DNA of 64,000 nucleotides, taken from Isurus oxyrinchus (taxonomy: Eukaryota). The stretch is from the NCBI GenBank assembly GCA_026770705.1, contig JANJGN010000035.1, forward strand, positions 6,448,001-6,512,000. Direction: 5' to 3'. Positions 27,976 through 63,391 of the stretch are shown here, one piece after another. Position numbers and translations under genes: made by a program. Numbering within the stretch: the first letter of the stretch is position 1; every line of letters starts with the position of its first letter. The notes below the pieces were generated by a model. It had not been told where the DNA came from. It saw only the letters and a list, made by a program, of their open reading frames with translations, and made no database searches.

Positions 27976-27982
27976 ATGATGC

Positions 27983-28359: not shown

Positions 28360-28701
28360 TGAATTTGCGCATCCTTATGTCTGTGACTTGGCCTCCAGCC
28401 ATCTCAAAAGACACCTTGGTGCTCCTCTCAGTTCCTGCAATCATATTGTTTATTTCTTTGGTACTCCGATCACCCGAGTAAATTGATACCATTGTTTTAA
28501 CCAATTCCCCTCTTTGAGGTGACATTCTCCCATCGGATGGCTTCTGGGGATAATCACTTGTGTTATCACGCATGGTGTTTACCTCGTCCATTTTTTCACA
28601 AATAACAGCTTGCATAGCCGTGTCTGATGGCATTTTCCTTTTGCCAGGTCCCACATTCCAGTTGTCGGGCTTGGTGGCTCCACACGAATCAATTTTTTGA
28701 T
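28360..28701 (-). pseudogene. Array exon A copy 1 (342 nt, open, weak donor)
   Basis: ctttcag|AT CAA AAA ATT GAT TCG TGT...TTC A|gtgaaa. No stop. Confidence 0.6.
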
Positions 28702-30019
28702 CTGAAAGACATCAAATAATCAGCAGTGAAATTTGACCGATGAGCACTCATGTTACTGGCTGTAAGCCGGATGCGCTCATTTAAAAAAAAACTCTAACTG
28801 GCTCATAGATTTGGTGCCTTACAATTTTAATTATATTCCAGCATTAACAGCTCTCCACCATACTGCATTTTGGACAATAAACATGGCAAATAAACAAAAC
28901 GTTGCCTATGCAAAATGGAGAAGAAGCAACAAGCTAATTAAATTGTGTAAGAAATAAAAGATTTCGTTTTGTAAATAATGGATAATCGCTCAAGCAGTTC
29001 AAACAGAAGTTCGGAGCCCAATCTAAACAAATTGGTTCAGAAACCTGTTGACAGTCAGGACCCATAGAAGGGTGGGGAAGTTCATTTTTCAAAAAATGAA
29101 TTCGAATTCGAAAGCAATAATTGTGCTGAGAGCCTACGAAACCCCATGTCAATTGGGACAATCTTGCACGTGTGTCAGTGAGGAACATAATGTAAGCTTT
29201 AACAAATGAAATTCCAAAGATGGGGAAACTTGGAATGTCTAAATAAAACCAGGTTAATACAAAAGAACAAAAATATATTTTCCTTGTATGAACGCATTAT
29301 CTGATCTTTCTTTCTGGAATGACTTTCAGAAGCTGAAATATTGGATATTGCAAATGTTATTTAAACATGGTGGAATTAGTTCAATTTATCGGATGCATAA
29401 CTTGGTGTATATATTCAGTTATTCATTTATTTTACCCGAAGGTAGAAGCAATCAGAATACCTATGTAATTCTATCAGTTTCGGAACATGGACTTCAGGGA
29501 GGTTCTTAGCAAAATGGAGTTCGAGTTCAAAGTTGAAAAGGATATTTAAATAAATATGTTTAGTTGAGTTCTTTGGGCTATTCAAGACAGATGTTCTGAG
29601 TCCAGCTCTGTGCTGAAAAAAGCCATACATTTCCAACAGCCACCCCGTCTCAAATTCAGTTTTTTTTAATGAACTTCCGTTGTTTCCATAGCAGAGTGAA
29701 TTAGAATTAAAATTCGTGTGGTATATTTTTTTACTAAATTGACAACAGTTTTGCCTTGGGTGATATTACTATACTTTCAGGGTAAGGAATCCACAAGGGA
29801 GCTGTTGCCAACGAGTTTATTTGTGTGTTTTGACCAAGTGGATTTCTTTGGGTGCACATGTTTTGTAAGACTGTCATGCTCTGAAATTTTAATCTTGTGT
29901 GCATACGTTATTTTTTCTTGTTAATACATATTTTAACTATGAAACATTAAGACTGATTCTAGGACTCTGGGATTCCTTTAAAAAGTACAGATAAAGCGCG
30001 ATCAGTAGGAAATGTTTCC

Positions 30020-33000
30020 ACCTGGGATATGGTTTGCATGGCGAATAACATTGGATGCAGTCATGAAAAATTGCTGACTATTTGCCGGATATTACGTTTC
30101 GTGGATTGCTTTCCAGTATGTACATACAGCGGACATGAGTCCCAGGAGCATGCTGAACTCAGGAGATTTGTGTTGAGCGCTCTAAAAGTAGTTTGAAGGC
30201 AGTTGCTTTCTGGGAGTAGAATATGTGACTGTTGAAGTTATGAAAACTTTGCCAAAAACAAACCGGAGAAAATTAGCAGTTAAAGTGCAGTTAGTAATGA
30301 AAGCAAACACTAGTAAAGCTGGTATGGTAAAAAGTATTTGCCACCATTTAAAGAGACTAGAATTCCGTGTGCCCCAAATGAAGGTACAAAAAATTCAATT
30401 GCAAATGAATCATCTTGGCATACAAACAGAGAGGACAAGGCAAAAAGGTGAACTGAAGGAAAGAGTGAAGGAATGAAGGATGTAATGAATAGCATTGGGA
30501 GAAAAAGGAAGTAAAAAGAGAAATGTTGAAATACAACACAAGCAAGAAAGGTTAGGGACAAATTGAAATAATTAGAAATGCAAATAAATTAAAAAAATAA
30601 AATCTTCCATGAAAGAAAGGCTAGGAAGAAATAGAAAGACAAAGTGTGCAATAAATTAAAATTTGATAGCTTGAGTTTTGACATCAGAGGGGGAAGCAGC
30701 TCAGGCAGTAACCCATGGCTTGGTAAAAGTTTGGAACAAAGTAAGGCAAAAGGGGATAGATAATGTTTCGGATGGTGAATTTGATTCGTTTGACGAATTT
30801 GGTTCAACTATGGATCTTCAGTTAGTACCTCAGTTCAAAAAAGATGGAGTTGAAATATATTTGACCTCCTTTGAAAAGATAGCTAGGAAAGTGAATTAGC
30901 ACAGAAATGCTTGATCTTTACCTTTATAGTTTTGTCAGGTATAGCAATTAACGTGAAGCTGGCTTATGAGACCAGTAATCAGTAGACTATGAAGCAGTCA
31001 AAAAAGTCTAGCAAAATGTGCAGCCGTTTATCCTGGTTGAAGCTTAGGAGTGTAAGAAAGCGACATAACCAGGATTTTACAGAGTTTGAACCAATAATGC
31101 TGTAAGTTTCAATACATGTTTTGATGAAAGACTGGTTCAAAAAAAATCAAGGAAGTGCTTACTTAGCCGATAAATCTGATAGCTCAAACTACAGTTGAGT
31201 GCTGGATAAAGAGCATGTGGTGCTACGAGAGTGAATTGGGTGTATATGCAAATTAATGATGGTAAAAATGTTAGTAGTAAGGAGCCAGCTGAAGCAGTTC
31301 AGTCTGCTAAAGACGGAAATATAGAACCCATAGGTGGTGGAGGAAAAGTATATGTAATCATTTGAAAAAAGTTGGACATGCAAGGACAAACTATAGGAGG
31401 TTAAATGTGGAACACATTGCAGTGAAAGAAAATCAAAAGATTTCGACAAGTAAATGTTGTGTGGGCTCTGAGACGCAAGGGTAAGGCAGTCCAGAAACTT
31501 TTATAATATGAGAAGGAAAGAATCAGTTTCGGTAGAGAGGTGGGAATGCGTTCCCAACCTACCCAAGAAAGTTCAGAACAGCAAGTTACAAAGATGTTTA
31601 AAGATGGCATATACCATGGGAATGTAAATCCTTGTGTTACAGGAAGAGCAGGGAAGACCACTAAGACCTTAAAAATGCAGGGACTAACTATTCATTATTG
31701 TTACGGCATCGTGCCATTTCCTGTTCATGTTGGTTATTGTAGGTGAAAGTGTTAGTTATTGGTATACATGGTGAGGGTGACCAGGAACCGGGGTTGGGGG
31801 AGGTGTGGTGTTGGAGTATTGAAAGTCAAGGTCATTTCGATACATAAAGTAAATTAAAGAAAAACAAACAAGCGATGAGAAATCAGGAGATGTGAGTGCT
31901 GCATTAGTAGCGAAATTTCGCGTTACATGTGTTCAAATTATTATAAGAAATGTAATAGCTGGATCTCAAATACTGATTTTGATTGCTGAAATAAAGGTAC
32001 ATTAAAAATTCAATAAACAGAGGCTTTACAGAAATAGCATTCTGGGTTGATTCCAGATTGTGAGGTGACGAACTCATAGATACACATACTTAAACAGGAA
32101 GCGGAAAAGTATGAAATACAGTTCGAGGAGACTCATGATCATTTGGGCGGATCTACCTTTGAAAATATAAGTTAGTAGTAGACATTGGCGCAGATGAAGA
32201 TGAAACGTTAATTTCCTCAAAATAAGTGCAGTTACAGCAGCAAAATGCACGTTTAAAGCTATTATGACGGACAGTTTTTCTTCAGAAGCTAAAGTGATTT
32301 TGCTTCCAAGGTTTAATTATGGAAAAAAAAACAACGTATTTTTGAAGAAATGGAGACCACTTCATGTCACAGCAGTGGGCGATAGTGCTCAGAGTTTTGT
32401 AATATCTGTGAACCAGAATGTAATTTTAGGAGATGCCCATGAAATCTCAATAGAAGAAGATTTATGATTTGGGAAAATTCAAGCAAAGTTGCAACAAAAC
32501 AAATCTATTGAGCTCGATAATATAAAGATGTAGTTAAATTTTATCAAACATGTAAGACATGTCAAGTGATGTGAAGATCTCAAACAGTAATTAAAGCTGC
32601 GCCTTTGATTCCAATTCTAGCAATTAAGCAAGCTTTTATCAGGATCTTCGTTTATTCTGTGGGACCCTGCCATAAGTCCAAACATTGAAAAAACTATTTA
32701 ATGAAAATCATTGATGTGCCTGTGAGAATTCCAGAAGCAAACCCGTCCGGGAGAAATACAACAAAGTTGATTTTGGAGGAGAAGACCAAATTGTTTGCAT
32801 GTCCTGGTTAGGAAAATACATACAATCGGATAAGGGGTCAAATTTCATGTCATAGCTGGTCAGACGAGTAGTGAAAAGGCAGTCTAGAATAATGCAATTA
32901 AGATTATAAATCTATCATGGTGGATCAGAATGCTGGTTATAAAAGTCGCATTATACTCGGAGGACAATGAGCTGATGTGCATATTGAAGAAAACCACTTG

Positions 33001-33470
33001 TTTGTAATAGAGTGATTCGATTCTTGTTGCTTGCTATTAAGGGCTCCCCTAATATATCAACAGGGTTCTGGCCTTTGCAATTAACTGATGAACATGAAGC
33101 AAGAGGGCATTTCAAATTGATTCAGGAGAAATTAGTAAACCAATGGACTCGATTGCGGAGGGCAATTGAATGTGTGCTTGAGACTGACGAAATTGAGCCC
33201 AATCAAAGTAACTGAAATTCGCCCATTGCAATGTTACCAAAGCCGGTTGAATGACAAAAGCTATGTACTGATAACCGGAAAGTCAACGTAGTAACAAAGG
33301 CGGGTACATATCTTATTCCACAATTGATGTTTGAATGGAGCTTGTGGGGGAGGCAGCATTAATCACAAAAGTTGACATGCTGCGAGGACACTATTAATTG
33401 CACTTGTCAGAAGCGTCAAAAGTGATGAACGTGAAGTAATGCCGTAGGAATGAAAAATGAATCAAAAATA
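30020..33470 (+). mobile_element. Gmr1-like Gypsy remnant 1 (LTR end, gag, PR, IN, partial RT; ~630 bp deletion)
   Basis: gag LVPQFKKDGVEIYLTSFEKIA; integrase AHE, APLIPI, QSDKGSNFMS and FLLLAIKGSPN.STGF; RT motifs after IN. All frames broken. Confidence 0.85.
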
Positions 33471-33520
33471 ATTCATAAAATACTACTGGAAATATCAATT
33501 CAAGATAAACGTACGCTCAC

Positions 33521-33853
33521 CCAACATTCGCTTCCTTATGTCTGCAACTTGGCCTCCAGTCTTCTCAACACGCACAATGGTGCTACCCTCAGTTCCTGCC
33601 ATCATATAGTTTATTTCCTTGCCACTCAGATGACCTTAGAAAACGCATACCAAATTTTTAAACTGTCCTCCCCTTTGAGGTAACATTTTCCATTCGGATG
33701 GCTTCTGGGGATATTCACTCGTGTTATTAGGCATGGTGTTTACCTCGCCCCCTTTTTCACAAATAACATTTTGCTTTGCCGTTTCTGAGGGCATTATCCT
33801 GTTGTTCGGTCTCACATTCCAGTGCTCAGGCATGGTGGCTTCACTTGAATAAA
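33521..33853 (-). pseudogene. Array exon A copy 2 (333 nt; in-frame 9-nt 5' deletion; one TCA>TAA stop)
   Basis: cttttag|TT TAT TCA...TTG G|gtgagc. Stop at 33636-33638. Confidence 0.65.
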
Positions 33854-34572
33854 CTAAAAGATATCAAATGCTCAGCATTGAAATTCGACCGATTAGCACT
33901 CATGTTACCGGCTGACAGTAGTTTGGGCACATTGAAAAGAAACTCTAATAGCCTCATAGATCTGATGCCTTACAAATTTCATTATATTCCAGCATTAATA
34001 GCTCTTCACCATGCTGAATTTTGGACAATAATCAGGACAAATAAACGAAACTTTACCTATATAAAATCTGGAAAAGGAAACAGGTTAATTAAATCTTGTA
34101 AGAAATAAAGGATTCCGTTTTGTAAATAGTGAATAATCGCTTAATCAGTTCAAACCGAAGTACAGAACTCAATCTAACCAAAATGATTCAGAAACCTGTT
34201 GACAGTCATGGCCCATAGACGGGTGGGGGAGTTCATTTTTTTAAATAAATTCCAATTTGCTTGTGCTGAGAGCACACGAAACCCCATGTCAATTGGAACA
34301 AACTTGCACGTGTGTCACTCAGGAGCATAAAGTAAAAATTAACACATCAAATTCCAATGATGCATAAAACTGCAATGTCTAAATAAAACCAGTTTAATAG
34401 AAGAGAGCAAAAATATACTTTGCTTGCATGAACGCAATACCCGATCTTTGTTTTCTGGAAGGACTTTCAGAAGTTGAAATATTGGAAAATGTTAATGTTA
34501 TTTAAAGGTGGTGAAATTATTTCAATTAATCGGATGCTTAACTGGGTGTATATATTCAGTTATTTACTTTAC

Positions 34573-35114
34573 CCGAAGGTAGAAGCGGTCGGAATACCTA
34601 AATGATTCTATAAATTTGGGAACGTTGAGTTCAGGGAGGTTCTTAGAACAATGGAGTCCATATCATAGGGGAAGAGGATATTTAATGAAATATGTTTGGT
34701 TGAGCAGTTTTGGCTAGGCAAGAGAGTTGTCCTGAGACCAGCTCTGTGCTGAGGAAAGCCATGCATTTTTAGCAGCAACCCAGTCTCAACTTCACTTTGT
34801 TTCCGAACTTCTGTTGTTTCCATAGCAGAGTGAATTAGAAGTATAATTCGTGTGGTATATGTTTTGGTAAAGTGACAGCAGTTTTGCCTTGGGTGATATT
34901 AGTATGTTTTCATGCTAAGGAATCCATAAGGGAGCTGTTGCCCAGGTTACTTGTGTGTTTTGACCAAGCGGATTTTTTTGGGTGTACATGTGTGTGCCAC
35001 TGTCATGCTGTGTAATTTTAAACTTATGTGCATAATTTATTCTTTCTTGTTAATACATATTTTAACCCTGAAACCTTAAAACTGCTTCAAGAACTCTCAG
35101 ATTCGTATAAGTTC
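34573..35114 (-). pseudogene. Array exon B (representative copy; decayed, ~540 nt)
   Basis: Acceptor tttttctttattttgtaaatgaag|GA and donor CGG|gtaaag. Recurrent ORF METTEVRKQSE.ETG..LK.HGF.QHRAGLRT. Homologous donors at ~29436, 40652, 46718, 52495 and 58287. Stops and shifts in the copies translated. Confidence 0.45.
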
Positions 35115-35160
35115 CTTCATTTACAAAATAAAGAAAAAGAGCCATCAGTTAGAAATGTTT

Positions 35161-38100
35161 CCACCTGGGATATGGCTTGCACAGAGAAAAATATTGGCTG
35201 CCGTCATAAAAAAAATGTGGACTGTTTGCCGGATGTTACGTTTGGCTGATTGCTTTCCAGTTTGTGCATACAACGGACACTAGTGCCAGGAGCATGCTGA
35301 AATCAGGAGATTTGTGTTGAGCGCTCTAAAATAGTTTGACGGCAGTTGCTTTCTGGGAGTAGAATACTCACTGTTGACGTTTTGAAATCTTTGCCAAAAA
35401 GAAAGCGGAGGAAATTAGCAGGTAAAGTGCAGGTAGCAATGAAAGGAAACACTTGTAAGGCGAGTATTGTTAAAATTATTTGCCACCATTTAAAGAGACG
35501 AGAATTCTGTGTGCCCCAAATGAAGTTAGAATAAATTCAATTGCAAATGAAGCAGCTTGGCATACAAACACAGAGGAGAAGGCAAAAAGGTGAACTGAAG
35601 GAAAGGATGAAGTAATGGACGATGTCATGAACAGCATTGGAAGAAAAAGGAAAAAAAATAGAAATGTTTAAATACAACACATGTAAGACAGATGGAGTTA
35701 AAACAGGTTTGGGACAAATTGAAATAAACAGCAATGCAAATAAATTTTGAAAAATATCTTCAATGAAGAAAGTGTAGGAAGAAATGGAAAGACAAAATGT
35801 GCAATAAATTAAAATATGTTAGCTTGAGTTTTGACATCAGAGGGGGAAGGAACATAGGCAGTAACCCCTGGCTTGGTAAAAGATTGGAACAAAGTAAGGC
35901 AAAAGGGGATAGATAATGAATTTAATTCGTTTGAGGAATTTGGTTCAACTAAAGATCTTTGTTAGCACCTCAGTTCAAAAAAGGAGTTGAAATATACTTG
36001 ACCACCTTTGAAAAGATAGCTAGGAAAGTGAATTCGCACTGAAATGCTTGATCTTTACTGTTATAGATAGTTTTGTCAGGTATAGCAATTAATGCGAAGC
36101 TAGTTTATGACAGGAACCATCAGCAGACTACGAAGCTGTCAAAAAAGTCATGCCAAATGCGTAGCTGGTAATCCTGGTTGAAGCTTAGGAGTGTAAGAAA
36201 AGGACATATTCAGGAATTTACAGATTTTGAAACCAAAAATGTTGCAAGTTTCAATACATATTTAGATGAAAGACTGGTTCAAAAAAAAATCAAGGAAAAT
36301 GCTTACTTAGCCGATAGCTATGATAACTCAAATTACGGTTGAGTGCTGAATAAAGATCATGTGGTGCTCAGATAGTGAATTGGGTGTATATGAAAATTAA
36401 TGATGGTAAAAATGTTAGTAATAAGGAGCCAGCTGAAGAACGGCAGTCTGCTACAGACGGAAATCTGGAAACCATAGGTGGAAGTAGGGAAGTGTATGTG
36501 ACCTTCTGATAAATGTTGGACATGCAGGGACAAACTATTGGAGTTTAAATGTGGAACCCATTGCATTGACATAAACTCAGAATAGTTCGACAAGTAAAAG
36601 TTTTGTGGGCTCTGAGACGCAAGTGTAAGGCAGTCCAGAAGCTTTTAGAATGGTGAGGAAGAAAGAATCAGTTTTAGTAGAGAGGTGGGAATGCGCTCAA
36701 AACCTACCAAAGAATGTTCTGAAGAGCAAGTTACAAAGATGTTTAAAGATGGCATATGCCATGGGAATGTATATCCTTGTGATACAGGAAGTGTAGAGAA
36801 GATCATTAAGACCTTAAAAATTAGGCTTCTAACTATGCATTATTGTTATGGCATCGTGCCATTTGCTGTTCATGTTGGCTATTGTAGGAGAACGTGTTAG
36901 TTATTGGTATACATGGTGGGGGTGACCGGGGGCCAGGAAGGGAGTGGGAGTGGGGGTGGTGTGGGGGGGGGGGGGGGGGGTGGGGGGAGTGGTGCTGGCG
37001 GGTGGGAGGTGGGCGTGTGGGGTGATGAAATTCAAGGTCATTTCGATAGATAAAAGTAAATGAAAGGAAAAAAACAAACAAGCGATTTGAAATCAGGAGT
37101 GGTGACTCCTGCATTAGTAGAGAAATTTCCCATTGCATGTGTTCGAATTATTATAAGAAATGTAATAGCTTGATCACAAATATTGATTTTGATTACTGGA
37201 GTAAAGGTACATTAAAGATGCAATAAACAGGGGCGTTACGGAAATAGCATTCTGGGTTGATTCCAGATTGTGAGGTGACGAACTCATAAACACACAAAGT
37301 TAAACAGGAAGGGAAAGAGTATAAAATACAGTTCGAGGAGACTCATTATCATTTGGGCGGATCTATCTTTGAAAATATAATTCCGTAGCAGACGTTGGCG
37401 AGGATGAAGATGAATCGTTAAGTTCCTCAAAGTAAGTGCAGATACAGCAGCAGAGTGCACGTTTAAAGCCGTTATGACGGATGGTTTGTTTTCAGAAGCA
37501 AAAGCGGAATGCTTTCCTGGATTTAGTTACCATAAAAAAACAAAGTGTTAATGAAGAAATGGAGACCACTTCATGTCGCAGCAGTGGGAGATAGTGCATC
37601 AAATTATGATAACATCTGGGAACCAGAATAGAATTTTGGGAGCTGCTCATGAAAGCTCAACGGAAGAGCATTTATGATTTAGGAAAAATCAAGCAAAGAA
37701 GCAACAAAAATAATCTATTGACCTCGATGTAGTTAGTTTCTATCAAACATGTTAGATATGTAAAATGATATGAAGATCTCAAACATTAATTAAAGCTGCA
37801 CCTTTAACTCCAATTCTAGCAATTAAGGAAACTTTTATCAAGATCTTCGTTTATTGTTTAGGACCCTTCCATAAGTCTAAGCATTGAAATCACTATTTAA
37901 TAAAAATCATGGATGTGCCTAAGAGAATTCCAGATGCAAACCCTCCAGGGAGAGGCACAACAAAGTTGATTGTTGATAAGAAGACCAAATTGTTTGCATG
38001 ACATGGTTAGGAAAATAAATACAATCGGATAAGCGGTCGAATTTCATGTCATAGCTGGTTAGACGAGTAATGAAAAGACAATCCAGGAATAATGCAATTC

Positions 38101-39545
38101 AGATTATTAAACTATCATGGCAGATCAGAATGCCAGTTATAAATGTAGCATTATACTTGGAGGATAATGATCTGATGCGCATAGTGAAGACAACCCAGGT
38201 GTTTGTAAAAGAGTGACTCGATTCTTGTTGCTTGCTATGCGGGGCTCCCCTAATCTATCAACAGGGTTCTGGCCTTTCCAATTAACTGATCAACATGAAG
38301 CAAGAGGGCATTTCAAATTGATTCAGGAGAAATTAGTAAACCAATGCACTGAAACACATTTCCAGGATTATGTGATTAAATTCAGAGAAAGATTGATTTG
38401 TGCATGAGAACTAGCTGGAGAACTATGAACAATATCACATTAAATGATGAAATCAAATTTGGGCAAAAAGGCAAAGAGTCGTTGTTCTGTGCCTGAGGAC
38501 ATGGTGTTATCATTGTTGCTGGTTTTATGATAACCGTTATAAGCAATGTATAGTTGATATTAAGAGGTTGAAAAGATTCTGAGTGTGTGGAACTACGCAG
38601 TTAATGCCCAAGGTCGAAGGAATTGTCAAAGAATGTGCCATGCAAACATGCTAACAGGGTACTTTGCCAGATAAGATAAGCAGAAATAGAAATTGGTAGT
38701 GATAAGTAAGGAGAAGGAAGCAGGAATTAGAAATTCTGAAATTGACTTCCCACTGATTACATTAGCCAATGAAAAAGTACTTCAAATGTAAATGTGATGA
38801 TTTAATTACATTCAAGAAAACTGTCGAAGTGATTTACAAGAACTATTGGAATCACATGAAGCAATTTCTGGAATCTGACCCGGAAAGGAAAAAAAATCAT
38901 AACTTTTGTATGATGATGACATGGGGAATTATTTTCCAATAAGGCAACACCCATATAGAACAAATACAGGAAAATGGACTCGAGCCCGGAGAGAAGTTGA
39001 ATGTGTTCTTGAGAATGACATAATCGAGCCGAATCAAATTAACTGAAATTCGCCCATTTGAATGTTACCAAAGCTGGTGGAATGACTAAGGCAATGTATT
39101 GATTACCGGAAAGTTAACGTAGTAACAAAGGCGTGTACATTTCCGATTCCACAATTGGTGTTTGAATCGAGCTTGTGGGGAATCAGCGTTAATCATAAAA
39201 GTGGACTCGCTGCGAGGACACTGTTAATTTCACTTGTCAGAAGCGTCAAAAGTGGTATCAGCTTTGGTGACGCCAGATGCTTTCTATCAATGTGAAGTAA
39301 TGCCGGAGGAATGAAAAATGCATCAACAATAATTCATAAAATACTCCTGGAAATATCAATTCAAGATAAAATACGTACATGTCCTATTCCACAATTGATG
39401 TTTGAATGGAGCTTGTGGGGGAGTCAGCATTAATCATAAAAGTTGACACGCTGCGAGGGCACTGTCAATTATACTTGTCAGAAGCGTCAAAAGTGATGAA
39501 CGTGAAGTAATGCCGTAGGAATGAAAAATGAATCCACAATAATTC
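35161..39545 (+). mobile_element. Gmr1-like Gypsy remnant 2
   Basis: Same domain series. RQHPYR at ~38942 and DYRKVN at ~39101 lie downstream of the integrase motifs. Confidence 0.88.
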
Positions 39546-39591
39546 ATAAAATACTACTGGAAATATCAATTCAAGATAAAAGTACGCTCAC

Positions 39592-39933
39592 ACAACATTC
39601 GCTCCCTTATGTCTGCGACTTGGCCTCCAGTCTTCTCAACAGGCACCATGGTGCTCCCCTCAGTTCCTGCCATCATATAGTTTATTTCCTTGCCAATCAG
39701 ATGATCTGAGAAAACACATACCGAATTTTTAACCTGTCCCTCATTTTGAGGTGACATTTTCCAGTTGGATGACTTCTGGGGATATTCGCGTGTCTTATTA
39801 GGCATGGTGTTTAAATCGCCCCCTTTTTCACAAATAACATTTTGCTTTGCCGAGTGGGATGACATTTTCCTGTTGCCGTGTCTCACATTCCAGTTCTCAG
39901 GCATGGTGGCTTCACTTGAATAAACTTTTTGAT
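39592..39933 (-). pseudogene. Array exon A copy 3 (342 nt, open; acceptor AG>GG)
   Basis: cttctgg|AT CAA AAA GTT...TTG T|gtgagc. Overlaps ORF 39566..39904. Confidence 0.6.
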
Positions 39934-41240
39934 CCAGAAGATATCAAACTCTCAGCACTTAAATTCGACCGATTAGCACTCATGTTACTGGCTGGCAGTG
40001 GGTTGGGCTTATAAAAAAAAAAAAATAATAGCCTCATAGATTTGATGCCTTACAAATTTGATTATATTCCAGCATTAACAGCTCTTCACCATACTGAATT
40101 TTGGACAATAGGCAGGGCAAATAAACAAAACTTTACCTATATAAAATGTGGAAGAAAAAACAGGCTAATTAAATCTTGTGTGAAATAAAGGATTCCGTTT
40201 TCTAAATAGTGAATAATCGCTTAATCAGTTCAAACAAGTTCAGAGCTTAATCTAAACAAATTGATTCAGAAACCTGTTAACACTCGTGGCCCGTAGAATG
40301 GTGGGGGAGATATTTTTTTAAATATAAATTCGAATTTGCTTGTGCTGAGAGGCAACGAAACCCCATGTCAATTGGAACAAACTTGCACGTATGTCAGTGA
40401 GGAGCATAAATTAAAAATTAACACCTCAAATTCCAATGATGCAGAAAATTGGAATGTCTAAATAAAACCAGGTTAATAGAAGAGAGCAAAAATATACTTT
40501 GCTTGCATGAACGCAATACCTGATCTTTGTTTTCTGGAATGACTTCCAGAATTTGAAATATTGGATATTGTTAATGTTATTTAAAGATGGTGAAATTAAT
40601 TCAATTAATCGGATGCTTAACTGTGTGTATATGTTCAGTTATTTATTTTACCCGAAGGTAGAAGCAGTTGGCATACCTGAATGATTCTCACAATTTGGGA
40701 ACATTGAGTTCAGGGAGGTTCTCAGAACAATGGAGTCCAAGTTCATAGAGGAAGAGGATATTTAAAGAAATATGTTTAGTTCAGTTGTTTTAGCTAGGCA
40801 AGTGAGATGTCTTGAGACCAGCTCTGTGCTGTGGAAAGCCCTGCATTTTCAAGAGCCACCCCGTCTCAAGTTCACTTTGTTTCTGAACTTCGGTTGTTTC
40901 CAAAGCAGAGTAAATTAGAAATACAATTCGTGTGATATATGTTTTGCTAAGGTGACAGCAGATTTGCCTTGGGTGATATTAATATATTTTCAGGCTCATG
41001 AATCCATAAGGGAGCTGTTGCCGGATTTACTTGTGTGTTTTGACCAAGTGGATTTTTTGGGGTGTACGTGTTTTGTAACATTCTCATGCTGTGTAATTTT
41101 ACCCTTGTGTGCATAAGTTAGTTTTTCTTGTTGATACATATTGTAACTTTAAAACATTCAGAATGATTCGAGGACACACACATTCGTATAAGTCCCTTAG
41201 TTTACAAAATACAGAAAAAGCGCGGTCAGTTAGACATGTT

Positions 41241-51412: not shown

Positions 51413-51462
51413 ATTCATCAAATACTCCTGGAAATATCAGTTCAAGATAAAAGTACACTCAT

Positions 51463-51804: not shown

Positions 51805-53082
51805 CTAAAAGATATCAAACGCTCAGCATTGAAATTCGACAGATTAGCACTCATGATATTGGCTGACAGTGTGTTTGGCTGATTAAAAAAATAAAATCGA
51901 ATTGCCTCATCGATTTGATGCCTTACAATTTTCATTATATTCCAGCATTTACGGCTGTTCAACAGAATGAATTTTGGACAATAAACCGAACAAATAAATG
52001 TAACTTTACCTATATAAAATGGGGAAGAAATAACAGGCTAATTAGATCGTGTAGCAAATAAAGGATTCCGTTTATAAATGGTGAATAATCGTTTAATCAG
52101 TTCAAACAGGATCTTAGGGCTCAATCTTATAAAATTGTTTCAGAAAACCGTTGACATTCATGGCCCATCGAAGGGTGGGGGAGTTCATTTTCAAAATAAA
52201 TTCGAATTTGCTTGTGCTGAGAGCACACGAAACCCCATGTTAATTGGAACAAACTTGCACGGTTAACAAATCAAATTCCAATGATGTGGAAAATTGGAAT
52301 TTTAAAATAACACCAGGTTAATAGAAGAGAGCAAAAATATAATTTACTTGCATGAACGCAATATCTGATCTTTTTTTCTGGAATGACATCAGAAGCTGAA
52401 ATATTGGACAGTGTTAATGTTATTTAAGGGTGGTGAAATTGTTTCATTTAATCTGATGCATAAGTGGGTGTATATATTCAATTACTTATTTTACCCGAAG
52501 GCAGAAGCAGTCGGAATACCGACCTCATTCTCACAATTAGGGAACATTGAGCTCTGGGAGGTTCTTAGAACAATGGATTCCAAGTTCAGAGGGGAAGAGG
52601 ATATCAAGAGAAATATGATTAGTTGAGCCGTTTTGGCTAGATAAAAGAGATGTCCTGAGACTGGCACTCTGCTGAGAAAAGCTGTTACCTTCAACAGACA
52701 CCCAGTCTCAAGATCACTTTGTTTCCGAACTTCAGTTTCTTCCATAGCAGAGTGAATTAGAAATAAATTCGTGTGGTGTACGATTTGCTAAAGTGACAGC
52801 AGTTTTGCCTTGGGTGACACTACTATGATTTCAGGTTAACCAATCCATAAGGGAGCTGTTGCCGAATTTAATTCCGTGTTTTGTCCAAGTGGATTTGTTT
52901 GGGTGTACATGTATTGTAACACTGTTATGTTGTAATTTTAACCTTGTGTGCATTAGATATATATTTTTTTGTTAATACTTATTTTAACTATGAAACCTTA
53001 AGACTGATTCTAGGACTCTGGGATTCGTATATGTCCCTTCGTTTGCAAAATACAGAAAAAACACAAACAATTAGAAGTGATT

Positions 53083-56000
53083 CCACTTGGGATATGGCTT
53101 GTAGAGCGAATAACTTTGGCTGGAGTCATAAAAAAAAGTGGACTGTTTGCCGAATGTTACATTTCGTTGATCGCTTTCCAGTTTGTGCATACAACGGAAA
53201 AGAGTGCCAGGAGCATGCTGAACTCTGGAGATTTGTGTTGAGCGCTCTAAAAGTTGTTTGATGGAAGTTGCTTCCTGGGTGTAGAATATGAAACTGATGA
53301 GCTTTTGAAAACATTGACAAAAACAACGCAGAATAAATTAGGAGGTAACGTGCAGGTAATAATGAAAGGAAAGACTTTTAAGGCGGGTGTGGTACAAAGT
53401 TTTTGCCACCATTTAAAGACACGAGAATTTTGTGTGCCCCAACAGAAGGTAGAATGAATTCAATTGCGATTGAAGCAGCTTGGTACACAACAGGGGAGGA
53501 CAAGGCAAAAAAAGTGAACGGATGGAAAGAGGGAAGGAAAGAAGGATGCATTGAATGGCATTGGGAGAAAAAAGGAAAAAAAAGAGAAATGTTAAAACGC
53601 AAGATAAGCAAGACAGATGGAGTTAAAAAGTTTAGGGACAAATTGGAATAATGCAGAAATGCAAATACATTTAAAAAATATATTCAATGAAAGAAAGTGC
53701 AGGTAGAAATAGAAAGACAAAGTGTACAATAAATAAAAATCTGATAGCTTGAGTTTGGACATCAAAGGGGGAAGGAGCTCACGCATTAATCCTTGGCTTG
53801 GGAAAAGTTTGGAATAAAGTAAAACAAAAGGGAATAGATAATGATTCAGATGGTGAATTTGATTTGTTTGAAGAATTTTGTTCAACTGACGAATTTCGGT
53901 TAGAACCACAGTTCACATAAGTTGGAGTTGAAATATACTTGACCTCCTTTGAAAGATAGCTAGGAAAGTGAATTACTCCAGAAATGCTTGATCTTTACTG
54001 TTAAAGATAGTTTTATCAGGTATAGCAATTAATGTGAAGCTAGCTTATGAGAGGAGCAATCAACAGACTATGAAGCCATCAACAAGGTCATACCAACTCC
54101 TTAGGAGTTTGTCCCGTATGAAGCTTCTGAGTGTAAGAAAGCGACATAACGAGAAATTTAGAGGGTTTGAAACCATATTGCTGTAAATATCAATACATAT
54201 TTAGATGACAGACAGGTTTAAGATATGAACGAAAGTGCTTACTTAGCCAATATTTATGGTGGCTCAAACTACGGTTGAGTGATGGGGAAAGGTCATGTGG
54301 CGCTCAGATAGTGAATTAGGTGTATATGATAATTGGTGATGGTAAAAATGTTAGCCAGCTGAAATAAGCCAGCTGAACAAACATCAGCCTGCAATAGAAG
54401 GAAATCTAGAACCCATAGGTGGAGGAAGAAAGGTATATGTTACAATTTGAAAAATGTTGGACATGCAACGACAAACTATTGGAGGATAAAAGTGCAACCC
54501 ATTGCAATGATTGAAACTAAGAAGAGTTCGACAAGTAAAAGTTCTGTGCGCTCTGAGAAGCAAGTGTAAGGCAGTCCAGACGCCTTTTATAATGGTGAAA
54601 AATAAAGAATCAGTTTTGGTAGAGAGGTGGGAATGCGCACACAACCTACCCAAGAAAGTTCTGAAAAGCAAGTTACAAAGATGTTTAAAGATGGCATATG
54701 CCATGGGAGAGTATATCGTTGTGATAGAGGAATTGCAGAATAGAACATTAAGGCCTTAAGAATACTGGGACTAACTATTCATTATTCATATGGCATCGTG
54801 CCATTTCCTGTTCATGTTGATTATTGTTGGAGAAAGTGATAGTTCCTGGAATACATGGTGGTGGTGACCGCAGGCCTTGGTGACTGGTGGGCGGGGTGTG
54901 GGGTGATGAAGTTCAAGGACATTTCGATAGATAAAGTAAACTAAGCAATAAAAAAAACAAGGAAATTGAAATCAGTAGAGGTTTGTCCTGCTTTATTAGA
55001 GAAATTTCGCATTGCATATCTTCGAATTATTATAAGAAATGTAATGGCTGGATCACAAATATTGATTTTGATAACTGGAGTAAAGGTACCTTAAAGCTGC
55101 ATTAAATTGAGGCTTTTCAGAAATAGCATTCTGGGTTGCTTCCAGATTGTGAGGTGACGAGTTCATAGATACACACACTTAAACAGGAAGGGAAAGAGTA
55201 CAAAATACAGTTCGAGGAGTCTCATGATCATTTGAGCGGATATTTCTTTGATAATATGAAATCAGTAGTATACGTTGGCGAGGTATGAAGATGAATCGTT
55301 AAGTTCCTTAAAGTAAGTGGAGTTACAGCAGCAGAATGCACGTTTAAAGCTGTTATGGCAGAAAGATTTTTTTTCAGAAACGAAAGCGGAATGGTTTCCA
55401 GGGTTTAACTACCGTAAAAACAATGTGTTAATGAAGAAATGGAGACTAATTCATGTCGCAGCAGTGGGCACAAGTGGATTAAATTGTGATAACATCTGGG
55501 AAGCAGAATGGAATTCTGGGAACTGCTCATGAAATGTCAAATGAAGAGCATTTATGATTTACGAAAACTCAAGCAATGATGCAAGAAAAAATAATCTATT
55601 GACCTCGATAAAATAAAGATGTAGTTAAAGTCTATCAAACATGTAACACATGTCAAGTGATATGGAGGTCTCAAACTTAATTAAAGCTGCGCCTTTAGTT
55701 CCAATTCCAGCAATTAAGGAAGCTTTTATCAGGATCTCCTTTAATTGTGTATGACCCCTCCATAAGTCTAAACATTGAAATCACTAACTAATGACAATCT
55801 TGGATGTGCCTTTGAGAATTTCAGAAGCAAACCCTCTAGGAAGAAATACAGCAAATTTGATTTTGGAGGTTATGAGCAAATTATTTGCATGATACGGTTA
55901 GGAAAATAAATACAATCGCATGAGCAGTCGAATTTCATGTCATAGCTGGTTAGACGAGTACTGAAAAGACAGTCTAGGAATAATCCAATTCAGAATATAA

Positions 56001-57225
56001 AACTTCTGCCGTGGATCAGAATGCCTGTTTTAAAGCTAGCATTATACTTGGAGGACAATGATCTGATGCACATATTCAAGACAACCCACATGTTTGTAAT
56101 GGAGTGATTGGATTCTTGTTGCTTTCTATTTGGGGCACCCCTAATGAATCAATAGGGTTCTGTCTTTTCCAATTAACTGATAAACATGAAGTAAGAGGGC
56201 ATTTCAAATTGATTCAGGAGAAATTAGTAAACCAATGCACTGAAAAACATTTCCGGCACTAGGTGGCTAAATTCCTAGAACGATTGATTTTTGCATGTGA
56301 ACTAGCTAGGTAACTTGTAAAGATATCACTTTAAATGATGAAATCAAATTTGGGCAATAGGGCAAAGGCTCGCTGTTCTGTGCCTGAGGCCATTTTGTTA
56401 TCTTTGTTGCTCGTTTTAGGACGACCATTATTAGCAATGTGTAGATGATATTAAGAGGTTCAAAAGAGTTTCACTGCGTGGAACTGCACAGTTAATGCCC
56501 AAGGTAGAACGATTTGGCAAAGAATGTGTCATGCAAATATGCTAATAGCGTACTTTGCCAGATAGGATAAGCAGAAATAGATATTGGTAGTGGTAAGTAA
56601 GGAGAAGGAAGCAGAAATTAGAAATTCTGAAATTGACTTGCCACTGATTACATTGGCAAATGAAAAAGTATTTAGAAATGTAAAAGTGATTATCAGTTAC
56701 ATTCCACAAAACTGCCAAAGTGATTTACTAGAACTATTGCAATCACACGAAGCAATTTCTGGAATCAGACCCGGAAATAAAAAAGAAAAACATAACTTTG
56801 CATGATGATGACATGGGGATTTATTTTTCAATAAGGCAACACTCATATAGATTAAATACAGGAAAATGGACTCGAGTGCGAAGAGATGTTGAATTTGTGC
56901 TTCAGAATGACATAATCGAGCCAATCAAAGTACCTGAAATTCTCTCAATGCAATGGTCTCAAGGCCGGATGAATGATTAAGGCTATGTATTGTATACCGG
57001 AAAGTTAATGTAGTAACAGAGACGAGCACATATCCTATTCAACAATTGACGTTTGAATCGAGCTTGTGGAGGAATCAGCGTTAGTCCCAAAAGTTGACTC
57101 GCTTCGAGGACATGGTCAAGTGCACTTGTCAGAAGTGTCATAAGAGTTATCAGCTTTGGTGACGCCAAGTTTTTTCTATTAACGTGATGTAATGCCGTAG
57201 GAATGAAAAATGCTGAAACAATAAT
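53083..57225 (+). mobile_element. Gmr1-like Gypsy remnant 5
   Basis: Colinear and very similar to remnants 4 and 6. Confidence 0.88.
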
Positions 57226-57273
57226 TCATATAATACTCCTGGAAATATCAGTTCAAGATAAAAGTACGCTCAC

Positions 57274-57615
57274 CCAACATTCACTCCCTTAAGTCTGTGA
57301 GCTGTCCTCCAGCCATCTCAACAGGCACCTTCTCACTCCTCTCAGTTCGTGCCATCAGATCGTTTATTTCCTTGGGACTCAGATGACCTGAGAAACGCCG
57401 TACCAAATTCTTAACCTGTACCCGTCTTTGAGGTGTCATTTCGCAGTCGGATGGCTTCTGGCGGCATTCGCTTGTGTTATCAGGCATGGTGTTTACCTCG
57501 CCCCGTTTTTCACAATTAACATTTTGCTTTGTCGTTTCTAATGTTATTTTTCTCTTGCCGGGTCTCACATTCCAGTCCTCAGGCATGGTGGCTTCACACG
57601 AATAAACTTTATGAT
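57274..57615 (-). pseudogene. Array exon A copy 6 (342 nt; splice sites intact; CGA>TGA near the end)
   Basis: cttttag|AT CAT AAA GTT...GAG TGA ATG TTG G|gtgagc. Confidence 0.65.
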
Positions 57616-58872
57616 CTAAAAGATATCAAACGCTCAGCATTGAAATTCGACCGATTAGCACTCATGCTATTGGTTGACAGTGTGTTTGGCTGATTAAAAA
57701 AAAAATCTAATTGCCTCATTGCTTTGATGCCTTACAATTTTCATTATATTCAACAGAATGAATTTTGGACAATAAACCAAACAAATAAATGTAACTTTAC
57801 CTATATAAAATGGGGAAGAAATAACAGGCTAATTAGATCGTGTAGGAAATAAGGGATTCCGTTTATAAATGGTGAATAATCGTTTGATCAGTTCAAACAG
57901 GATCTTAGGGCTCAATCTTAACAAATTGTTTCAGAAACCCATTGACATACATGGCCCATCGAAGGGTGGGGGAGTTCATTTTTAAAATAAATTCGAATTT
58001 GCTTGTGCTGAGAGCACACGAAACCCCATGTTAATTGGAACAAACTTGCACAGTTAACAAATCAAATTCCAATGATGTGGAAAATTGGAATTTTAAAATA
58101 ACACCAGGTTAATAGAAGAGAGCAAAAATATAATTTACTTGCATGAACGCAATATCTGATTTTTTTTTTCTGGAATGACATCAGAAGCTGAAATATTGGA
58201 CACTGTTAATGTTATTTAAGGGTGGTGAAATTATTTCATTTAATCTGATGCATAACTGGGTCTATATATTCATTTACTTATTTTACCCGAAGGCAGAAGC
58301 AGTCGGAATACCGACCTCATTCTCACAATTAGGGAACATTGAGCTCAGGGAGGTTCTTAGAAGAATGCATTCCAAGTTCATAGGGGAAGAGGGTATTAAG
58401 AGAAATATGATTATTTGAGCCGTCTTGGCTAGATAACAGAGATGTCCTGAGACCGGCAGTCTGCTGAGAAAAGCTGTTATTTTCAACAGACACCCAGTCT
58501 TAAGATCACTTTGTTTCCGAACTTCCGTTGCTTCCACAGCAGAGTGAATTAGAAATAAATTCGTGTGGTGTACGATTTGCTAAAGTGACAGCAGTTTTGC
58601 CTTCGGTGATACTACTATGTTTTCAGGTTAACCAATCCGTAAGGGAGCTGTTGTCGAATTTAATTGCGTGTTTTGACCAAGTGGATTTGTCTGGGTGTAC
58701 AAGTATTGTAACACTGTTATGTTGTAATTTTAACCTTGTGTGCATTAGAAATATTTTTTTTGTTAATACTTATTTTAACTATGAAACCTTAAGACTGATT
58801 CAAGGACTCTGGGATTCGTATATGTCCCTTCCTTTGCAAAATACAGAAAAAGCACAAACAATTAGAAGTGTT

Positions 58873-61800
58873 TCCACTTGGGATATGGCTTGTAGAGCGA
58901 ATAACTTTGGCGGGAGTCATAAAAAAAAGTGGACTGTTTGCCGGATATTACGTTTCGTTGATCGCTTTCCAGTTTGTGCATACAACGGACATGAGTGCCA
59001 GGAGCATGCTGAACTCTGGTGATTTGTGTTGAGCGCTCTAAAAGTTGTTTGATGGAAGTTGCTTTCTGGGTGTAGAATATGAGACTGATGAGCTTTTGAA
59101 AACATTGACAAAAACAACGCAGAATAAATTAGGAGGTAACGTGCAGGTAATAATGAAAGGAAAGACTTGTAAGGCAGGTATGGTACAAAGTTTTTGCCAC
59201 CATTTAAAGACACGAGAATTTTGTGTGCCCCAACAGAAGGTAGAATGAATTCAATTGCGATTGAAGCAGCTTGGGATACAAAAAGGGAGCACAAGGCAAA
59301 AAAAGTGAACGGAAGGAAAGAGGGAAGGAAAGAAGGATGCATTGAATGGCATTGGGAGAAAAAAGAAAAAAAAAAGAGAAATGTTAAAACGCAAGACAAG
59401 CAAGACAGATGGAGTTAAAAAGTTTAGGGACAAATTGAAATAAACAGAAATGCAAATACATTTAAAATTGTATATTCAATGAAAGAAAGTGCAGGAAGAA
59501 AAAGAAAGACAAAGTGTACAATAAATAAAAATCTGGTAGCTTGAGTTTGGACATCAAAGGGGGAAGGAATTAACGTATTAATCCTTGGCTTGGGAATAGT
59601 TTGGAATAAAATAAAACAGAAGGGAATAGATAGTGATTCAGATGGTGAATTTGATTTGTTTGAAGAATTTGGTTCAACTGACGAATTTCGGTTAGAACCA
59701 CAGTTCAAAAAAGTTGGAGTTGAAATATACTTGACCTCCTTTGAAAGATAGCTAGGAACGTGAATTACTCCAGAAATGCTTGATCTTTACTGTTAAAGAT
59801 AGTTTTATCAGGTATAGCAATTAATGTGAAGCTAGCTTATGAGAGGAGCAATCAGCAGACTATGAAGCCATCAACAAGGTCATACCAACTGCTTAGGAGT
59901 TTGTCCGGTATGAAGCTTCTGAGTGTAAGAAAGCGACATAACGAGAAATTTAGAGGGTTTGAAACCATATTGCTGTAAATATCAATACATATTTAGATGA
60001 CAGACAGGTTTAAGATATGAACGAAAGTGCTTACTTAGCTAATATTTATGGTGGCTCAAACTACAGTTAAGTGATGGGGAAAGGTCATGTGGCGCTCAGA
60101 TAGTGAATTAGGTGTATATGATAATTAGTGATGGTCAAAATGTTAGTAACAATAAGCCAGCTGAACAAACATCAGCCTGCAATAGAAGGAAATCTAGAAC
60201 CCATAGGTGGTGGAAGAAAAGTATATGTTACAATTTGAAAAATGTTGGACATGCAACGACAAACTATTGGAGGATAAAGGTGCAACCCATTGCAATGATT
60301 GAAACTAAGAAGAGTTCGACAAGTAAAAGTTCTGTGCGCTCTGAGAAGCTAGTGTAAGGCAGTCCAGAGGCCTTTTATAATGGTGAAAAATAAAGAATCA
60401 GTTTTGGTAGAGAGGTGGGAATGCGCACACAACCTACCCAAGAAAGTTCTGAAAAGCAAGTTACAAAGATGTTTAAAGATGACATATGCCATGGGAGAGT
60501 ATATCGTTGTGATAGAGGAATTGCAGAATAGAACATTAAGGCCTTAAGAATACTGGGACTAACTATTCATTATTCATATGGCATCGTGTCATTTCCTGTT
60601 CATGTTGGTTATTGTTGGAGAAAGTGCTAGTTCTGGAATACATGGTGGTGGTGACCGCAGGCCTTGGGGAGGGGTGGGCGGGGTGTGGGGTGATGAAGTT
60701 CAAGGACATTTCGATAGATAAAGTAAACTAAGCAATAAAAAAAACAAGGAAATTGAAATCAGTAGAGGTTTGTCCTGCTTTATTAGAGAAATTTCGCATT
60801 GCATATCTTCGAATTATTATAAGAAATGTAATGGCTGGATCACAAATATTGATTTTGATAACTGGAGTAAAGGTACCTTAAAGCTGCATTAAATTGAGGC
60901 TTTTCAGAAATAGCATTCCGGGTTGCTTCCAGATTGTGAGATGACGAGTTCATAGATACACATACTTAAACAGGAAGGGAAAGAGTACAAAATACAGTTC
61001 GAGGAGTCACATGATCATTTGAGCGGATATTTCTTTGATAATATGAATTAGTATTATACGTTGGCGAGGTATGAAGATGAATCGTTAAGTTCCTTAAAGT
61101 ATGTGGATTTACAGCAGCAGAGTGTTCGTTTAAAGCTGTTATGAGAGAAAGATTTTTTTTCAGAAGCGGAATGGTTTCCAGGGTTTAACTACCGTAAAAA
61201 CAATGTGTTAATGAAGAAATGGAGACCAATTCATGTCGCAGCAGTGGGCACAAGTGGATTAAATTGTGATAACATCTGGGAAGCAGAATGGAATTCTGGG
61301 AACTGCTCATGAAATGTCAATGGAAGAGCATTTATGATTTACGAAAACTCAAGCAAAGATGTAAGAAAAAATAATCTATTGACCTCGATAACATAAAGAT
61401 GTAGTTAAAGTCTATCAAAAATGTCACACATGTCAAGTGATATGGAGGTCTCAAACATTAATTAAAGCTGTGCCTTTAATTCCAATTCCAGCAATTAAGG
61501 AAGCTTTTATCAGGAACTTCGTTTAATGTGTATGACCCCTCCATAAGTCTAAACATTGAATTCACTAATTAATGACAATATTGGATGTGCCTTTGAGAAA
61601 TTCAGAAGCAAACCCTCTAGGGAGAAGTACAGCCAAGTGGATTTTGGAGGTGATGACCAAATTATTTGCATGACATGGTTAGGAAAATAAATACAATCGC
61701 ATGAGCATTCGAATTCCATGGCATAGCTGGTTAGACGAGTACGGAAAAGACAGTCTAGGAATAATGCAATTCACAATATAAAACTTCCGTGGTGGATCAG

Positions 61801-63000
61801 AATGCCTGTTTTAAAGCTAGCATTATACTTGGAGGACAATGATCTGATGCACATAGTCAAGACAACCCACATGTTTGTAATTGGGTGATTGGATTGTTGT
61901 TGCTTGCTATTTGGGGCTCCCCTAATGAATCAATAGGGTTCTGTCTTTTCCAATTAACTGATAAACATGAAGCAAGAGGGCATTTCAAATTGATTCAGGA
62001 GAAATTAGTAAACCAACGCACTGAAAAACATTTCCAGGACTAGGTGGCTAAAGTCCTAGAACGATTGATTTTTGCATGTGAACTGACTAGGTAACTTTTA
62101 AAGATATCACGTTAAATGATGAAATCAAATTTGGCCAATAGGGCAAAGGCTCGCTGTTCTGTGCCTGAGGCCATGGTATTATCATTGTTGCTCGTTTTAG
62201 GACGACCATGATTAGCAATGTGTCGATGATATTAAGAGATTCAAAAGAGTTTGAGTGTGTGGAACTACGCAGTTAATGCCCAAGGTAGAAGGATTTGACA
62301 AAGAATGTGCCATGCAAACATGCTAACAGCGTACTTTGCCAGATAGGATAAGCAGAAATAGATATTGGTAGTGGTAAATAAGGAGAAGGAAGCAGAAATT
62401 AGAAATTCTGAAATTGACGTCGCACTGATTACATTGGCCAATGAAAAAGTATTTAGAAATGTAAAATTGATAATCAGTTACATTCCAGGAAACTGCCAAA
62501 GTGATTTCCCAGAACTGTTGCAATCACACGAAGCTATTTCTGGAATCAGACCCGGAAATAAAAAAAAACATAACTTTGCATGATGATAACATGGGGAATT
62601 ATTTTTCAATAAGGCAACACTCATATAGATTAAATACAGGAAAATGGAGAGTGCGGAGAAATGTTGAATTTGTGCTTGAGAATGACATAATCGAGCCCAA
62701 TCAAAGTACCTGAAATTCTCTCAATGCAATGGTCCCAAGGCCGGATGAATGATTAAGGCTATGTATAGATTACCGGAAAGTTAATGTAGTAACAGAGGCG
62801 AGCACATATCCTATTCAACAATTGATGTTTGAATCGAGCTTGTGGGGGAATCAGCATTAGTCCCAAAAGTTCACTCGCTTCGAGGACATGGTCAAGTGCA
62901 CTTGTCAGAAGTGTCATCAGAGGTATCAGCTTTGGTGACGCCAGGTGTTTTCTATTAACGTGAAGTAATGCCGTAGGAATGAAAAATGCTTAGACAATAA
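58873..63000 (+). mobile_element. Gmr1-like Gypsy remnant 6
   Basis: Colinear. IRQHSYRLN...ENDIIEPNQS in ORF 62501..62713. Confidence 0.88.
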
Positions 63001-63049
63001 TTCATAAAATACTCCTGGAAATATCAGTTCAAGATAAAAGTACGCTCAC

Positions 63050-63391
63050 CAAACATTCGCTCCCTTAAGTCTGTGAGCTGTCTTCCAGCCATCTCAACAG
63101 GCACCTTGTCACTCCTCTCAGTTCGTGCTATCAGATCATTTATTTCCTTGGGACTCCGATGACCTGAGAAAAGCCATACCAATTTCTTGAACGGTACCCG
63201 TCTTTGAGTTGACATTTCGCAATCGGATGGCTTCTGGCGGCATTCGCTTGTGTTATCAGGCATGGTGTTCACCTCGCCCTGTTTTTCACAATTAACATTT
63301 TGCTTTGCCGTGTCTAATGGTATTTTTCTGTTGCCGGGTCTCACATTCCAGTCCTCAGGCATGGTGGCTTCACACGAATAAAGTTTATGAT
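63050..63391 (-). CDS. Array exon A copy 7: open 342-nt phase 1-1 exon with both splice sites intact (product unknown)
   Basis: gatatcttttag|AT CAT AAA CTT TAT TCG TGT GAA GCC ACC ATG CCT...CGA ATG TTT G|gtgagc. 114 codons, no stop. Expression not demonstrated. Confidence 0.4.

Follow-up and report, generated by a model that had tools for sequence, protein, structure and literature searches.

Seven tandem copies of a symmetric 342-nucleotide exon in an NLR-derived locus of Isurus oxyrinchus

The exon array and its host locus

The window analyzed here is a 64,000-nucleotide (nt) stretch of DNA from Isurus oxyrinchus (assembly GCA_026770705.1, contig JANJGN010000035.1, positions 6,448,001 to 6,512,000; coordinates on the whole contig are prefixed C35). 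Its minus strand carries a tandem array of units, each holding one copy of an exon, designated exon A, and an intron. The array belongs to a locus derived from an NLR gene. Spacing from copy to copy is 5161-6071 nt, and the array ends about 3.3 kb past the window's right edge (window-equivalent position 67291). The array and its exon copies are as follows.

27983..64000, minus strand: tandem array of exon-plus-intron units, 5.2-6.1 kb each and 79-95% alike
63050..63391, minus strand: exon A copy 7, 5'-most; 342 nt, open, acceptor AG and donor GTGAGC present
57274..57615, minus strand: exon A copy 6; 342 nt, AG and GT present, TGA at codon 111 (57281-57283)
51463..51804, minus strand: exon A copy 5; 342 nt, donor mutated to AT, TGA at codons 24 and 111 (51731-51733 and 51470-51472)
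45657..45998, minus strand: exon A copy 4; 342 nt, open, acceptor mutated to AA
39592..39933, minus strand: exon A copy 3; 342 nt, open, acceptor mutated to GG
33521..33853, minus strand: exon A copy 2; 333 nt, AG and GT present, TAA at 33636-33638
28360..28701, minus strand: exon A copy 1, 3'-most and the oldest branch; 342 nt and open, with a CAG acceptor and a weaker donor, GTGAAA

A sequence-only reading of this DNA had proposed an exon that keeps its frame in all seven copies. Coordinates and alignment agree with that description: six copies are 342 nt long, one is 333 nt long because of a 9-nt in-frame deletion immediately past its retained AG, and there are no frameshifts. Its account of the damage was borne out as well, with copies 1, 3, 4, and 7 fully open, stops located in copies 2 (TAA), 5, and 6 (both TGA), acceptors lost in copies 3 (GG) and 4 (AA), the donor lost in copy 5 (AT), and both splice sites of copy 7 intact. 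Both AG and GT are kept in copies 1, 2, 6, and 7. A stop codon lies between intact splice sites in two of the seven copies (2 and 6), and an open frame is combined with both splice sites in two (1 and 7). One peptide variant that the reading had listed, VKNLVCVF, occurs in none of the copies; the actual sequences are FKNLVCVF followed by a stop (copy 2), VKNSVCVF (copy 3), and VKNLVRRF (copy 6).

Exon A begins and ends in phase 1 (AG/AT CAT ... TTT G/GT, with slashes at the splice sites). In intact genes of the surrounding NLR cluster, phase-1 introns precede the first CARD exon and separate the second CARD exon from NACHT, and the second CARD exon's donor and the NACHT acceptor both have this phase. 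Any exon retained at these places must therefore be of the 1-1 type. The symmetric phase proposed earlier agrees with the phase 1 of the introns on either side of the CARD module in the NLR family. As a symmetric cassette, exon A has the right length (342 or 333 nt, divisible by three) and a phase that fits its neighbors; intact sites with an open frame are not general to the copies (two of seven).

The minus-strand gene order is CARD-like exon 1 (phase 1-0), CARD-like exon 2 (0-1), seven copies of exon A (1-1), a gap, and the last exon. The two CARD-like exons lie upstream of the window (C35 6518211-6518370 and 6523797-6523927; 6.8 and 12.4 kb past copy 7) and are both open. When joined, they align without gaps to the N-terminal modules of a Mustelus asterias NLR (P0010) and of an intact cluster gene, with shuffle z scores of 12.1 and 11.2, respectively (0 of 5000 shuffles), and with identical phases. 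The gap-free alignment and the phases mark them as the N-terminal death-fold (CARD-like) part of an NLR gene, and CARD clusters are those nearest to this module in Atlas (score 0.89, a lead only). Two further features lie at the other end of the gene.

27985..27990, no strand: AATTTT junction at which about 7.8 kb of the sister locus C, with its NACHT and LRR exons, is absent
22181..22268, minus strand: last coding exon of the NLR gene, RFYNNYFSEVGKRTLKSVMEPTPRLTVVV followed by a stop; open, phase-2 acceptor

Elsewhere in the genome, exon A has three further DNA matches, which belong to locus B (7.46 Mb) or locus C (6.85 Mb) of the same contig. The unit and tens of kilobases on either side are paralogous with B and C at 74-84%, and the length of this paralogy identifies the loci as segmental duplicates. 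At locus C, the last exon A is followed after about 1 kb by a NACHT exon riddled with stops and frameshifts and then by two LRR exons and the last exon, while locus B has kept its LRR exons but only the 3' half of NACHT. C-like sequence at the array locus reaches the end of the unit of copy 1 and then restarts 7.8 kb further on in C at the shared AATTTT. The 7.8 kb covers the NACHT exon plus both LRR exons. By this comparison of loci, the NACHT exon is absent from the array locus, as are both of the LRR exons that B and C carry, leaving only the last exon at the C-terminal end. The locus is thus NLR-derived and not NLR-coding, and no NLR can be made from it. Since two loci stand against one and the last exon is stranded, a deletion at the array locus would be the simplest reading. 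An orthologue search with a 212-amino-acid piece of the broken locus C NACHT found none among 613 candidates at an E value of 1e-10.

The number of exon A copies differs among the loci, with seven in the array, two at B, and one plus an older relative at C, which also has two further units without exon A. The sister copies B2 and C1 contain frameshifts. Copies 2-7 form one clade (support, 100) with subgroups 2+3 and 5+6+7, and copy 1 is about as distant from them as are B and C. Trees of separate segments vary along the unit, a pattern given by unequal exchange with breakpoints inside the unit. These trees, the copy counts, and the exon-less units at C show that exon A copy number has risen and fallen repeatedly. 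A transposon origin of exon A was rejected, as the genome holds only 10 DNA matches, all on one contig.

Reading frame, splice sites, and amino acids

The seven units were aligned with MAFFT, and counts were identical under three settings. The flanks contained 94 short gaps, 79 of them frameshifting, over 4143 columns. At this rate 6.5 frameshifting gaps are expected per 342 nt, and exon A has none (Poisson P = 0.0015; P = 0.0009-0.0065 once homopolymer runs were handled separately). All 119 overlapping flank windows hold at least two frameshifting gaps. Indels as dense as in the flanks, which the sequence-only reading had named as evidence against its proposal, were thus not found.

Neutral evolution was also simulated along the tree of the exon A copies, counting splice hits at the four invariant splice bases. 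The neutral expectation was 8.6 stop gains, 6.4 frameshifts, and 2.0 splice hits. Observed were three stop gains (four if the TGA common to copies 5 and 6, which derives from CGA, arose twice), no frameshifts, and three splice hits. Stops and frameshifts together therefore number 3-4 versus 14.9 expected (P = 0.0002-0.0009), about one-fifth to one-fourth of expectation (95% range, 0.04-0.69), whereas splice-site changes are not depleted (3 versus 2.0). In the youngest group, copies 5-7, three lesions fall on about one-fifth of the tree. This is near the neutral share, so the constraint, judged from these few events, had probably already lapsed by the time these copies arose.

The amino acids of exon A are without constraint. 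The one-ratio estimate of nonsynonymous to synonymous substitution rates (dN/dS) among the copies was 1.08 (range about 0.75-1.6; likelihood-ratio test against 1, P = 0.76), the value near 1 that the sequence-only reading had said would tell against it. Tip and inner branches were alike, copies 1 and 7 were no different, and the five other reading frames gave 0.92-1.36. Changes at codon positions 1, 2, and 3 numbered 56, 49, and 55, and tree length was 0.57 for exon A versus 0.52 for the flanks. Neither purifying nor diversifying selection on the peptide was detected across the seven copies, and the copies described earlier as diversified show no sign of selected diversity.

Searches were made with the peptide, 52% of whose residues are disorder promoting. 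Pfam matched none of three copies, and no homolog was found among 27 candidates from longer proteins (near and shorter lengths not searched) or in 1.84 billion representative proteins. An Atlas search gave no usable match. A single-sequence fold of copy 7 had a predicted local distance difference test score (pLDDT) of 53.5 and a predicted template modeling score (pTM) of 0.23, too low to interpret. A literature search, with subscription journals and supplements outside its scope, found no paper on exon A or its locus.

If the gene had died before the unit multiplied, the copies would have decayed neutrally from the start, and the lack of frameshifts would reflect luck and a G+C-rich, low-indel sequence. 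The dN/dS value across all branch classes, a substitution rate not lower than that of the flanks, splice-site hits at the neutral rate, and the frameshifts in B2 and C1 all suit this account. Several points also temper the frame signal itself. A gap-free 342-column window occurs somewhere in 15% of uniform placements (look-elsewhere P = 0.15), exon A has a higher G+C content than most flank windows while indel counts drop as G+C rises (r = -0.40), and the signal consists of few events, judged against a simple Hasegawa-Kishino-Yano (HKY) null in a region originally picked for its openness. However, stops are depleted too (3 versus 8.6; P = 0.02-0.03), which G+C does not explain, and all lesions pooled number 6 versus 17 expected (P = 0.001). 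The place of the exon is moreover set independently by its splice sites and gene context. Finally, the array locus has kept its last exon and both upstream CARD-like exons open, whereas CARD-like exon 2 has stops at both B and C; this points to a later death of the array locus. Given the depletion of frame-breaking changes, we regard neutral decay from the start as unlikely. The sequence-only reading had itself offered neutral decay of a young duplication as an alternative; pure neutrality from the start is improbable, and the duplication is not young, copy 1 being about as far from copies 2-7 as the sister loci are.

Interpretation of the array

We consider it fairly probable that the array consists of repeats of one exon in an NLR gene now lacking NACHT and LRR exons, that these repeats served in the past as a spacer free in sequence and guarded in frame, and that they are now decaying. 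The exon A copies would have encoded a floppy spacer behind the CARD-like domain and probably multiplied by unequal crossing-over. As the phase-1 introns accept only 1-1 exons, whole copies could have been gained, skipped, or lost free of cost. An included copy with a stop or frameshift would have cut NACHT off, so that the frame would have been guarded while the amino acids drifted. The 7.8-kb deletion may have come next, followed by the lapse of constraint and then by stops between intact splice sites. From the earlier idea of a variable-copy, 114-amino-acid cassette, this retains a real symmetric exon and a varied copy number (7/2/1) and drops selected diversity and present-day function. 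The exon may plausibly have acted as a cassette-like spacer in the past, but it is unlikely to be a working cassette now, because NACHT and the LRRs are lost, copies 2 and 6 are stopped, and CARD-like exon 2, which would splice into the array, has lost its acceptor AG (TTTG/CAA).

The source of exon A may lie in the start exon of the family. In intact genes, the ATG exon consists of an acceptor, a 24- to 30-nt leader, CACCATGGC, and a phase-1 donor. Exon A copies 2-7 have the same layout, an acceptor and a 29-nt leader followed by GCCACCATG (in copy 7, GCCACCATG begins 29 nt past the acceptor). The ATG has become AAG in copy 1, B2, and C1, and none of the 11 sequences compared has a leader that is closed or out of phase; together, these features fit internal use. 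A DNA profile of exon A (nhmmer) found two distant relatives, one at locus C directly after the CARD-like exon and the other, W0, in a neighboring NLR remnant.

13414..13932, minus strand: W0, a broken exon A relative (nhmmer E value, 8e-15; its 3' end is a candidate only)
12509..12675, minus strand: first CARD-like exon of the neighboring remnant, about 740 nt downstream of W0, with one TGA

W0 carries ACACCATGGCC 29 nt past its acceptor, and its start-site sequence is ACACCATGG. Together, W0 and the CARD-like exon occupy the positions at which intact cluster genes place the ATG exon and then the first CARD exon. The agreement in layout provides a lead that exon A could derive from the family's ATG exon; the likeness in sequence is weak (E values of 1.2-1.3; peptide score not significant). 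By this weaker part of the proposal, exon A would be an enlarged relative of the ATG exon whose open, in-phase 29-nt leader allowed its use as an internal exon. Behind W0 and its CARD-like exon (window 12509-13932, minus strand), neither a second CARD exon nor NACHT was found. Upstream of W0, an open AG...GT stretch in phase 1-0 (window 15680-15810, minus strand; TLLSNIAQ...TERNAHQ) is a candidate exon of the W0 gene; CARD profiles do not match it.

A number of observations weigh against the spacer reading. No intact gene with exon A was found, and all 12 relatives sit in broken loci, so the working ancestor can only be presumed. No exon A relative lies upstream of NACHT at any of the 22 loci scanned (20 kb each for 20 of them) among the contig's 30 NACHT loci, and none occurs in the protein collections searched. 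At locus B, another CARD-like exon 2, which is frameshifted, intervenes between exon A and the NACHT remnant (C35:7452514-7452689, minus strand), so the ancestral exon order may have been a different one. The extra exon sits in a 3.6-kb stretch seen at neither other locus, and the ancestor may have had two CARD modules. CARD-like exon 2 by itself has no significant BLASTP or Pfam match, and profile-profile probabilities are low (0.4-2.5%). With regard to origin, the profile of the 5' part of exon A falls in register with the ATG exons of two cluster genes at nhmmer E values of only 1.2 and 1.3, among about 19 subthreshold matches.

The layout shared with ATG exons also suggests that the copies could have been alternative first coding exons, each starting at GCCACCATG and placing one of several N termini onto common downstream exons instead of building one long spacer. 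The acceptor, 29-nt leader, CACCATG, and phase-1 donor correspond to the start exon of intact genes (MAE...), W0 has ACCATGG directly ahead of a first CARD exon, the ATG-anchored peptides are alike (MPENWNVGPG and MAERMKVGPE), and locus B retains a CARD-like exon downstream. However, the AAG codons and the 11 open, in-phase leaders argue for an internal exon, and at each of the three loci CARD-like exons whose donor is in phase 1 are found upstream. A promoter in each unit was sought and rejected: there is no CpG island and no conserved promoter-like stretch, and an ETS-like motif occurs in 4 of 10 copies. We therefore judge this alternative to be quite unlikely. A second coding exon per unit was likewise rejected, the only AG-GT candidates being short (60-121 nt) and none convincing. 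All seven units have an invariant G/GTAAA some 670 nt before the exon A acceptor (minus strand, about 58286 and equivalents); this G/GTAAA could be the donor of a noncoding exon.

It is very unlikely, in our estimation, that the locus now makes a truncated, CARD-only regulator, in which the CARD-like exons would be joined to chosen open copies (7 and 1) and the last exon, with damaged copies skipped. By analogy with CARD-only proteins (COPs) and pyrin-only proteins (POPs), such a product would compete with full NLRs, a role we hold to be just as improbable. All the exons required are open, there is an in-frame AG 24 nt within CARD-like exon 2, and splice-site losses make up three of six lesions versus 12% expected (P = 0.02-0.04), which fits harmless skipping. 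There is also precedent, as the accessible part of one account has COPs and POPs arising through exon duplication and POP4 deriving from an NLR pseudogene, NLRP2P (PMC7555848). As at the array locus, that part describes a death-fold remnant that exon duplication or loss has left next to the parent cluster; for COPs and POPs, expression and tests are on record, whereas the array locus is known from sequence and its CARD-like module is shortened and lacks an acceptor (PMC7555848). Against a living product, the missing acceptor would call for a cryptic one, skipping of exon 2 shifts the frame, and CARD-like exon 1 falls 12 codons short of its counterpart in the intact gene. Both copies 2 and 6 would have to be skipped, dN/dS is 1.0 on tips 1 and 7, and a phase-1 donor joined to the last exon is out of frame, with a stop after nine codons. 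RNA data do not bear on the question. Assembly contigs from four runs included none over 62700-64000, these contig-only data being uninformative on expression, and coverage of 21000-29300 fell on interspersed repeats and not on copy 1, which is uninformative either way. In one run, the bin containing the last exon had a depth of 0.93, with no matching piece listed for it. The boldest combination of these ideas would have a start-codon exon recruited as an internal length dial between CARD and NACHT, with only its frame guarded and copies dropped via splice-site loss, at a locus that is now a spliced CARD-only decoy with a tail of copies 7 and 1; we give it very little credence.

Returning to the spacer reading, its elements have counterparts elsewhere. 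In Olduvai/NBPF arrays, tandem exon-plus-intron units lengthen a disordered protein region; they differ from the exon A array in their two-exon units, their setting in active primate genes, and their unrelated sequence. Shark NLRP3-like or NLRP-related genes (Mustelus asterias P0010, Cetorhinus maximus P0006) have the same two-exon CARD-like module, NACHT on a single large exon, LRRs on short exons, and a matching last exon. The array locus lacks NACHT and two LRR exons and alone has the 114-codon exon seven times, an exon absent from the retrieved shark proteins and the 22 scanned cluster loci. Shark NLRP-related expansions are, like this contig, clustered and contain many broken copies. In the whale shark, the accessible text of one report describes an expanded NLRP-related family thought to evolve by concerted or birth-death turnover (PMC8455134). 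Zebrafish NLR-B30.2 genes, as far as the available part of their description goes, have extensively duplicated N-terminal repeats of about 30 amino acids that are shuffled between groups, and they share with the array locus a variable repeat number N-terminal to NACHT, exon shuffling, gene conversion, and a large cluster (10.1101/022061). The zebrafish repeats described there sit in intact genes with Fisna and B30.2; here the repeat has 114 amino acids and the gene is broken, and no likeness in sequence is expected.

The array locus is a broken instance of already known kinds of NLR repeat and remnant, and most likely one more, ordinary broken gene in a birth-and-death shark NLR cluster. What is notable is how cleanly the constraints split, with the frame kept and the amino acids and splice sites free. 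The array would thereby offer a small natural case of the evolution of a sequence-free spacer exon, possibly an ATG exon turned internal repeat. If a truncated product did exist, it would be a shark CARD-only regulator that arose independently of primate COPs and POPs.

The surrounding NLR cluster

The contig is an NLR cluster, holding 30 of 96 genomic NACHT matches, 11 of which have stops. An intact-looking gene lies upstream of the array.

C35:6553885-6559162, minus strand: small, intact-looking NLR located 45 kb upstream of the array and comprising a 583-amino-acid NACHT frame, a pair of LRR exons, and a last exon

The nearest relatives of its NACHT are shark NLRP3/12-like models (55% for Stegostoma and 51% for Heterodontus). 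Another NLR pseudogene occupies the left end of the window (157-3155, plus strand, and L021:8913-9999); it retains a broken 3' part of NACHT, an LRR exon (about 2634-2872), and a match to the last exon (3102-3155). The 4.4-kb region that surrounds CARD-like exon 1 has a duplicate, 75% alike, at C35:6540236-6544633, where the exon is likewise open. The cluster also contains a 926-codon open retrotransposon frame (C35:6545252-6548029, plus strand) with several near-identical copies nearby and older fragments at window positions 24289-25305 and 41972-42220. With a putative reverse transcriptase and GIY-YIG, it looks Penelope-like. Lastly, an old inverted repeat pair of 234 nt, 70% alike, is present at window positions 14391-14616 and 15314-15545.

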